From an uncultured virus (IMG/VR IMGVR_UViG_3300042197_001803) (lineage: Duplodnaviria; Heunggongvirae; Uroviricota; Caudoviricetes), in the IMG/VR virus record IMGVR_UViG_3300042197_001803, positions 1 through 64,000 of that record: a stretch of DNA of 64,000 nt; one strand, given 5' to 3'. Below are positions 27,764 to 27,852 of the stretch, one piece after another (the stretch's first letter is position 1; every line of letters begins with the position of its first letter). The position numbers were made by a program, and so were the translations under genes. The notes under the pieces are model-generated. The model had not been told where the DNA came from. It did not search any database and saw nothing but the letters and a program-made list of their open reading frames with translations.

Positions 27764-27786
27764 AAAAAAAGGAGACCGAAGTCTCC
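27764..27786 (-). terminator. intrinsic terminator
   Basis: GGAGAC-TTCG-GTCTCC-TTTTTTT. Confidence 0.9.
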
Positions 27787-27792
27787 TGATTT

Positions 27793-27844
27793 GGGGCCGA
27801 CCAGATTAGTCGACGGTTCCACCACCTTATTTTTCTAAATAAGG
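27793..27844. ncRNA. candidate small structured RNA: tmRNA/tRNA-Ala-like microhelix (plus) or its antisense (minus), plus adjacent hairpin
   Basis: GGGGCCG-ACCAGATTAGTCGA-CGGTTCC-ACCA followed by CCTTATTT-TTCT-AAATAAGG. Confidence 0.5.
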
Positions 27845-27852
27845 AAACACGA

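Follow-up and report, generated by a model that had tools for sequence, protein, structure and literature searches.

A candidate shortened wcaG-type RNA behind smpB and a conserved 91-residue protein gene in a large aquatic phage lineage

CCA ends are bound by the UGGN sequence of T-box RNAs and by the P15 loop of RNase P. Among phage RNAs, the wcaG RNA (RF01761) is an orphan riboswitch candidate known from T4-like cyanophages and from marine metagenomes (Weinberg et al. 2010, PMC2864571; also PMC9964418), where it precedes exopolysaccharide and high-light genes (PMC2864571); its consensus reads AGUUU-P1-UGGUG..-P2-..CC-GUUUC-P3-GUGGCGAGCCUG. The tmRNA of phage DS6A offers a precedent of another kind, a phage tmRNA that is little more than a tRNA-like domain (Hudson et al. 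2014, PMC4131195).

We analysed a stretch of 64,000 nucleotides (the window) from an uncultured virus of the Caudoviricetes (IMG/VR record IMGVR_UViG_3300042197_001803), whose contig measures 95.9 kb (CheckV completeness about 33%). Comparison of its sequence with that of related phages documents the strand, fold, conservation, copy number, synteny and wcaG relation of a short element close to smpB. In our best explanation, to which we give an even chance, this element would be a structured RNA of about 85 nt, encoded on the gene strand (the minus strand of the window), present in a single copy and related to the wcaG RNA.

Gene order and anatomy of the element

All genes at the locus lie on the minus strand, in the order 163-aa ORF, element, 105-aa ORF (p105), and the terminator scan places a strong minus-strand intrinsic terminator directly downstream of the element. 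The features of the surroundings are as follows.

29437-29946, minus strand: smpB (Pfam SmpB, 1.4e-48)
28667-29401, minus strand: p244, between smpB and p91
28355-28630, minus strand: p91, a conserved protein of 91 aa and the most constant upstream neighbour, found upstream on the same strand at essentially all loci
27853-28344, minus strand: p163, which in this lineage separates p91 from the element; exactly 27848-28354 is missing from one metagenome contig
27748-27755, minus strand: ATATTTAT, a motif resembling a promoter and belonging to the 105-aa gene downstream, of a kind found 5-29 nt before gene starts
26429-27352, minus strand: NAD-dependent epimerase/dehydratase (WcaG/Gmd-like), the second gene downstream (Pfam Epimerase 2.6e-56, GDP_Man_Dehyd 4.4e-54)
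near 7143-7556, minus strand: gene of the CCA-enzyme family (PF01743)

The conserved gene order is nudix-smpB-p244-p91-(p163)-element-p105-epimerase. At the loci of relatives the order smpB-p244-p91 is maintained, and p91 often follows smpB, in the group of G001, a complete relative, directly. The start of the element lies 0-8 nt past the p91 stop codon in many distant relatives, and the element is also found without p91, in the cyanophage S-RIM2 and in a GC-rich phage contig (L113). Homologues of p163 occur as well in phage contigs having neither p91 nor the element. In a contig from a lagoon metagenome, position 27847 is joined directly to 28355, that is, to the p91 stop codon, and in close relatives the metagenome contigs part from the window at 27848 or else have 27847 fused to that same stop codon. 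The junctions at 27847/27848 thus place the 5' boundary of the element and identify p163 as a presence/absence insertion. Downstream, the WcaG/Gmd-like gene follows p105 in many relatives and is missing in more distant ones; in the window an RmlC-like epimerase is encoded four genes downstream of the element. In the one possible RNA run (X20), contigs covered 27300-27487 only.

The covariance model described below found one strong match per genome (68, 60, 55, 40 and 25 bits), the next-best match having an E value of at least 0.009, and the genomes with a single copy include two 100%-complete relatives of ~320 kb (G001 and G002). Taken with the gene order, this suggests that the element closes a transcription unit with smpB (where present) and p91, upstream of the 105-aa and nucleotide-sugar epimerase genes, a part of our best explanation that we regard as evenly balanced.

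The protein encoded by p91 is 91-95% identical where that of p244 is about 42% identical. At 90% identity its family falls into 1473 clusters, every one annotated as hypothetical; Pfam and PHROG gave no match, and the ESM Atlas no usable one. The AlphaFold model is confident (pLDDT 85) and the protein is acidic (net charge about -3); the best fold match reaches Z 5.7 (Rv3208A) and Foldseek returned no match at E <= 0.001; the fold has no clear relative. The fast-evolving p244 is modelled as two very long helices with beta sheets (pLDDT 84), and again no fold match was obtained at E <= 0.001.

In gene-strand order the element runs from GUUU through hairpin 1, UGGUGG(A), a short linker, hairpin 2 and CCC(C/U) to an A-rich spacer and the intrinsic terminator.

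27845-27848, minus strand: GUUU at the 5' flank, where the module has its boundary; UUU invariant or nearly so (alignments A2 and A5)
27825-27844, minus strand: hairpin 1 (CCUUAUUU-AGAA-AAAUAAGG), putative equivalent of wcaG P1; 97.8% of cells paired
27818-27824, minus strand: UGGUGGA linker, unpaired in the minimum-energy fold; UGGUGG invariant (alignments A1 and A2)
27796-27814, minus strand: hairpin 2 (GUCGACUA-AUC-UGGUCGGC, with two U.G pairs), putative equivalent of wcaG P2; 86% of cells paired
27793-27795, minus strand: CCC(C/U) tail that follows hairpin 2, a conserved feature of alignments A1, A2 and A5
27764-27792, minus strand: A-rich spacer and intrinsic terminator (AGGAGAC-UUCG-GUCUCCU) with U tract, from the terminator scan
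27793-27824, plus strand: the same bases read as a microhelix, which is not conserved

The consensus of the 5' module is UaGUUU-CCUUGU..ACAAGG-UGGUGGA, in which the 5' UUU and the AAA of the loop never vary in the alignment, while position 7 of the tail may be A, U or C. On the minus strand of the window the RNAfold minimum (-27.5 kcal/mol, z -2.36) consists of a hairpin, an unpaired UGGUGGAACC, a second hairpin, CCC and the terminator, as the preliminary description of this DNA had stated.

The functional strand and the alanine-microhelix reading

Relatives were fetched via two flanking proteins and searched by nhmmer, which detected the element at about 75 of 99 loci and in gene orientation every time. 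Scanning DNA with a pattern gave about 60 further matches, and about half of the scan matches, lacking the hairpins, are due to chance. With nhmmer and a covariance model (R1) built from hairpins 1 and 2, the element is found in about 90 related phage contigs, again always in gene orientation.

The preliminary description had left the choice between strands to whichever pairings covary among related phages, and they do so on the minus strand. In an alignment of 93 sequences, 92.4% of the helix cells are paired, a share that falls to 23-54% once the partners are slid, and compensatory changes affect 7 of the 12 helix pairs, in both hairpins; the observed covariation was reached by none of 500 shuffles. 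Both sides change at 4 of 6 pairs in hairpin 1, where one pair runs through the series G-C, G.U and A-U, and at 3 of 6 in hairpin 2, whose third pair is mostly U.G and would read as a C.A mismatch on the plus strand. Counted by alignment column on the minus strand, hairpin 2 contains 30 G.U versus 7 A.C cells; a strand-symmetric hairpin finder gives 22 versus 3 for hairpin 2, and 12 versus 0 for the terminator. As these G.U pairs would be A.C mismatches on the plus strand, the minus strand appears to be the functional one. Folding energies favoured neither strand, the better fold being on the minus strand in 24 sequences and on the plus strand in 21, and RNAalifold gave no useful consensus on the MAFFT alignment.

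The same bases had been proposed to act on the plus strand, as an alanine-accepting microhelix or mini-tmRNA serving as a decoy or substrate for AlaRS and SmpB. The letters are as claimed (plus strand 27793-27824, GGGGCCG-ACCAGATTAGTCGA-CGGTTCC-ACCA), and in the window they form a perfect 7-bp stem with two G.U pairs, G3.U70 among its features, A73, an encoded CCA and a free ACCA (-9.9 kcal/mol, z -1.34); smpB and the CCA-adding enzyme, both correctly recognised, are encoded nearby. The likeness to the DS6A tmRNA (PMC4131195) and to synthetic alanine microhelices is that the plus strand of the window mimics an alanine acceptor stem, and that it would be a phage-encoded, much-reduced, tmRNA-like acceptor element with a proposed role in titrating SmpB. 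However, DS6A has a complete tRNA-like domain with a T arm, whereas here the stem is unconserved and the functional strand is the opposite one. The folding energy of the microhelix is ordinary, being matched by 16 of 200 shuffles. Stems of 7 bp followed by ACCA number 33 in the window against a random expectation of 19.5 +/- 5; with G1 and G3.U70 also required, 0.52 are expected per 64 kb, and at least one such pattern arises in 41% of random sequences matched in length and composition. The microhelix pattern alone is therefore not beyond chance.

Nor does the acceptor stem behave as a conserved helix. Its cells pair in 63% of cases on either strand, with no compensation, and it is complete (7 of 7 pairs) in the window only, relatives having 3-6 of 7. 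The G3.U70 position is G.U in 33 of 37 aligned sequences on the plus reading, which speaks for the microhelix, but it is G.A, G.G, A-U or U.U in several clades, and a change of CCCC to CCCU in 11 sequences gives A1.C72 on the plus strand and G.U on the minus strand. The wobble pairs of the competing hairpin 2 and of the terminator work on the minus strand only. No T arm or D-loop analogue is available to SmpB, and the Rfam tmRNA model (RF00023), with its tRNA-like domain and T arm, pseudoknots and tag reading frame, has no match in the window or the contig. The preliminary description was right that a full tmRNA is not visible, neither ARAGORN nor Rfam reporting one in the window or in the 95.9-kb contig; related phages possess a normal full tmRNA elsewhere.

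There is also no plus-strand promoter, and the only promoter-like motif nearby faces the other way. This motif, ATATTTAT, looks like a phage promoter or leader motif: it recurs on both strands of the contig, 5-29 nt ahead of many gene starts and oriented as the gene is, a placement from which it would serve the downstream gene rather than act as a plus-strand promoter. Taken together, an alanine-accepting function of the plus strand is very improbable, and the "acceptor microhelix" is evidently the mirror image of conserved gene-strand letters. A caution follows, in that a seemingly perfect alanine microhelix may be no more than a conserved RNA of the opposite strand seen in mirror image.

Elsewhere in the contig, the only call made by ARAGORN is a doubtful tRNA-Leu(taa) at 23098-23176 on the minus strand, which is not tRNA-like by eye and has a terminator-like hairpin (GGGAGUUUGACUCCC and a U tract) at its 3' end; the Rfam tRNA model stays below its cut-off throughout the window. 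Other identities considered for the element were a Chi site, a Shine-Dalgarno-like sequence, a CRISPR repeat, a small ribozyme and a type III toxin-antitoxin RNA; they were set aside on grounds of single copy, lack of an Rfam match or wrong layout.

Relation to the wcaG RNA

A relationship that the preliminary description had missed emerged from comparison with other phages. Short blastn searches against GenBank phages matched an unannotated gap in S-RIM2 and about 70 other Synechococcus phage records. The R1 model scores the S-RIM2 stretch at 36 bits (E 7e-10), and RF01761 calls that same stretch wcaG at 56 bits, above its cut-off of 42 bits. Conversely, RF01761 gives 20.8 bits to the element of the window, 22.3 to that of G001 and 11.2 to that of G002, all three below the Rfam gathering cut-off, the matches in the window and G001 being at the R1 site. 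The two models thus match each other's loci. Among the other matches, those of blastn to Streptomyces phages are due to chance, as they lack UGGUGG and any model match, and the RF01761 match at position 39810 of a third complete relative (G003) is a gene end with a terminator.

The first module of S-RIM2, GUUUCC-hairpin-UGGUGGAG-GUCAUUAUGAC-CCU, has the layout of the jumbo-phage element. The 5' module of RF01761 (AGUUU, P1 with an A-rich 3' side of the loop, and UGGUG) is present in the element and aligns to both the model and S-RIM2, and P2 with its C-rich stretch is represented by the covarying hairpin 2 followed by CCC. The P2 of S-RIM2 takes the same GUC..GAC-CCU form as in the element, unlike the Rfam consensus GGGG..CCCC. 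The 3' module of RF01761 (GUUUC, P3, GUGGCGAGCCUG) is missing from the window and from the aligned jumbo-phage relatives, in which the terminator comes directly after CCC(C)AAA. On this shared layout with the first half of the S-RIM2 RNA, the element would correspond to the 5' half of wcaG without the P3 module.

In S-RIM2 the wcaG RNA (HQ317290.1, 162743-162837; positions 2498-2592 of our extracted locus L225) occupies an unannotated gap and is followed by an intrinsic terminator. It comprises two modules with different tails, UGGUGGAG and UGGCGAGCC, and the tail of the second also begins with UGG (UGGCGAG).

The likeness to wcaG therefore extends to a phage-borne RNA on the gene strand with the layout AGUUU-hairpin-UGGUG-hairpin-C-rich tail, to a terminator next in line in S-RIM2, to exopolysaccharide or epimerase genes in the vicinity (here in the window and its close relatives) and to the reciprocal matches of the two models. 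The differences are equally clear: a score of 20.8 bits against a 42-bit cut-off, the lack of the whole 3' module, a P2 of the form (C/U)GAC...GUCGG instead of GGGG...CCCC, and a location in AT-rich freshwater jumbo phages, behind p91 and smpB, rather than in marine cyanophages. We put at about one half the probability that the element is a shortened, one-module relative of the wcaG RNA of T4-like cyanophages, this being part of the same best explanation; judged by its letters and fold, it is apparently a truncated version, and a new one, of an orphan phage RNA that was already known.

Candidate roles of the element

The tail sequence UGGUGGA is the reverse complement of UCCACCA, and it is on this sequence that our preferred mechanism turns. 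Flanked by two helices, the UGGUGG(A) linker would dock an uncharged tmRNA or tRNA with an acceptor of the Ala/tmRNA type by its free 3' (U)CCACCA end, which would thereby be either sensed or sequestered. We prefer this mechanism, tentatively and at well under even probability, because of the invariant UGGUGG between helices, the UGG that starts the tail of the second wcaG module, and the smpB and tRNA contexts.

Full tmRNAs are encoded by three complete relatives, G001, G002 and G003 (66-97 bits with Rfam). Their CCA is not encoded, which fits the possession by the phage of its own CCA-adding enzyme, and ARAGORN misses all three, so that counts of tmRNAs in huge phages that are based on ARAGORN may be too low. 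These genes lie at 1501-1890 of the extracted locus L100 (G003), 1501-1878 of L101 (G001) and 1501-1897 of L102 (G002), and their 3' ends read ..CCUCCAC|AA. Before CCA addition the phage tmRNAs end in ..CUCCA or ..UUCCA. In every combination among the three relatives, the element can pair by its head with the mature tmRNA 3' end over 7-8 nt, and its tail has no match to the cognate phage tmRNA 5' ends. A minus-strand RNA antisense to both tmRNA ends, as proposed earlier together with a comparison of termini (carried out here on the phage tmRNAs), has thus been upheld in part: the anatomy is conserved and complementary to (U)CCACCA 3' ends, but pairing with the 5' end is rejected. In G001 a 3' end of the tmRNA type is found on the tmRNA and on no phage tRNA; in G003 the phage tRNA-Ser(UGA) also ends in CUCCA.

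The GC-rich contig L113 provides a different setting, as its copy of the module lies inside an array of 25 tRNA genes, on the tRNA strand, and in this contig a 3' end of the tmRNA type is found on tRNA-Tyr, tRNA-Ala and tRNA-Lys. The contig has a GC content of about 58%, and the 25 tRNA genes of its array (5228-12463), all with an encoded CCA, stand among HNH-endonuclease-like ORFs; the wcaG-type module is placed between tRNA-Pro and tRNA-Gly. No terminator was seen after this copy.

Several observations count against docking. The complementarity would amount to only 6-8 nt and involve an end that is common to several tRNAs; the target strand beyond ACCA is base-paired inside the tRNA; tail position 7 varies, which U70 of tmRNA cannot do; p91, an acidic protein, shows no recognisable RNA-binding fold; and in the complete relatives the element is ~100 kb away from the tRNA and tmRNA genes.

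The resemblance to the T-box discriminator and to the P15 loop of RNase P is one of a candidate working principle only, in that UGGN or GGU is unpaired between helices and complementary to ACCA, and in the T-box case also in that the stretch adjoins a terminator. A leader of the T-box family sensing a specific uncharged tRNA is suggested by the UGGAACC of the window, which resembles the UGGNACC bulge and comes just before the terminator, but this sequence is peculiar to the window, relatives reading GGAUUC, GGAGUC or GGAGUA. Moreover, the element lacks Stem I, a specifier and an overlap of antiterminator and terminator, no antiterminator pairing being found, and RF00230 does not match even at E <= 10. 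Membership of the T-box family, to which we attach a negligible probability, is refuted, and only the general principle of pairing with CCA ends survives.

A more substantial contender is the original reading of wcaG as a classical metabolite riboswitch, in which the junction would bind a small molecule, for example a nucleotide-sugar intermediate, and set terminator read-through into the 105-aa and epimerase genes. A terminator directly follows the element in 45 of 45 distinct variants (fetched via the flanking proteins) and in S-RIM2, and the conserved junction with WcaG/Gmd-like and RmlC-like genes downstream fits the published wcaG context (PMC2864571). But the epimerase/dehydratase, encoded two genes downstream in the window and its close relatives, is gone in distant ones, a promoter-like motif intervenes between the terminator and the next gene, and the copy inside the tRNA array has neither a terminator seen after it nor such a protein gene downstream. 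There is also no cognate alternative pairing with the terminator: for a closing P1 or antiterminator helix, formed by the 5' flank or an arm of hairpin 1 with the 5' arm of the terminator, cognate combinations were no better than non-cognate ones (-3.9 vs -4.2 and -7.0 vs -6.7 kcal/mol), and such a helix was rejected. We therefore consider a riboswitch unlikely, though well short of negligible.

A role as a 3'-UTR element, or as an sRNA derived from the 3' UTR, strikes us as similarly unlikely. It might shield the smpB-p91 transcript at its 3' end, be a partner or operator of p91, or act in trans through a UGGUGGA seed. In p91-containing genomes the element always comes after p91, on the same strand and often within 0-8 nt of its stop codon; it is a discrete, single-copy module with a sharp 5' boundary, and it has a terminator and a U tail like those of bacterial sRNAs. 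Against this, the acidity of p91 and its want of a clear RNA-binding fold argue against a partner role, the module also exists without p91 in S-RIM2 and L113, and with about 100 occurrences of CCACCA in the contig no specific mRNA target stands out.

Docking of CCA ends is the mechanism that we retain, with the reserve expressed above. The p91, smpB and tRNA-array contexts point away from sugar metabolism and towards tRNA and tmRNA biology. One might speculate further, and here we are more doubtful still, that wcaG-type modules, including the form in the smpB-p91 unit, are phage RNAs that capture mature 3' CCA ends and not metabolite riboswitches. The wcaG RNA was described as a riboswitch candidate in 2010 and has stayed an orphan since then; a shortened form with a single module now turns up, as one copy per genome, across a large clade of jumbo phages from aquatic habitats. 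The interest of this form is in its link to smpB and p91 and in its offering a minimal module, a construct of 60 nt, for tests of the structure of wcaG-type RNAs and of what they bind. If capture were indeed its function, the target here would be the Ala/tmRNA type of end, (U)CCACCA, and the phage would sense or block the charging of the ribosome-rescue RNA of its host while supplying its own SmpB and tmRNA.
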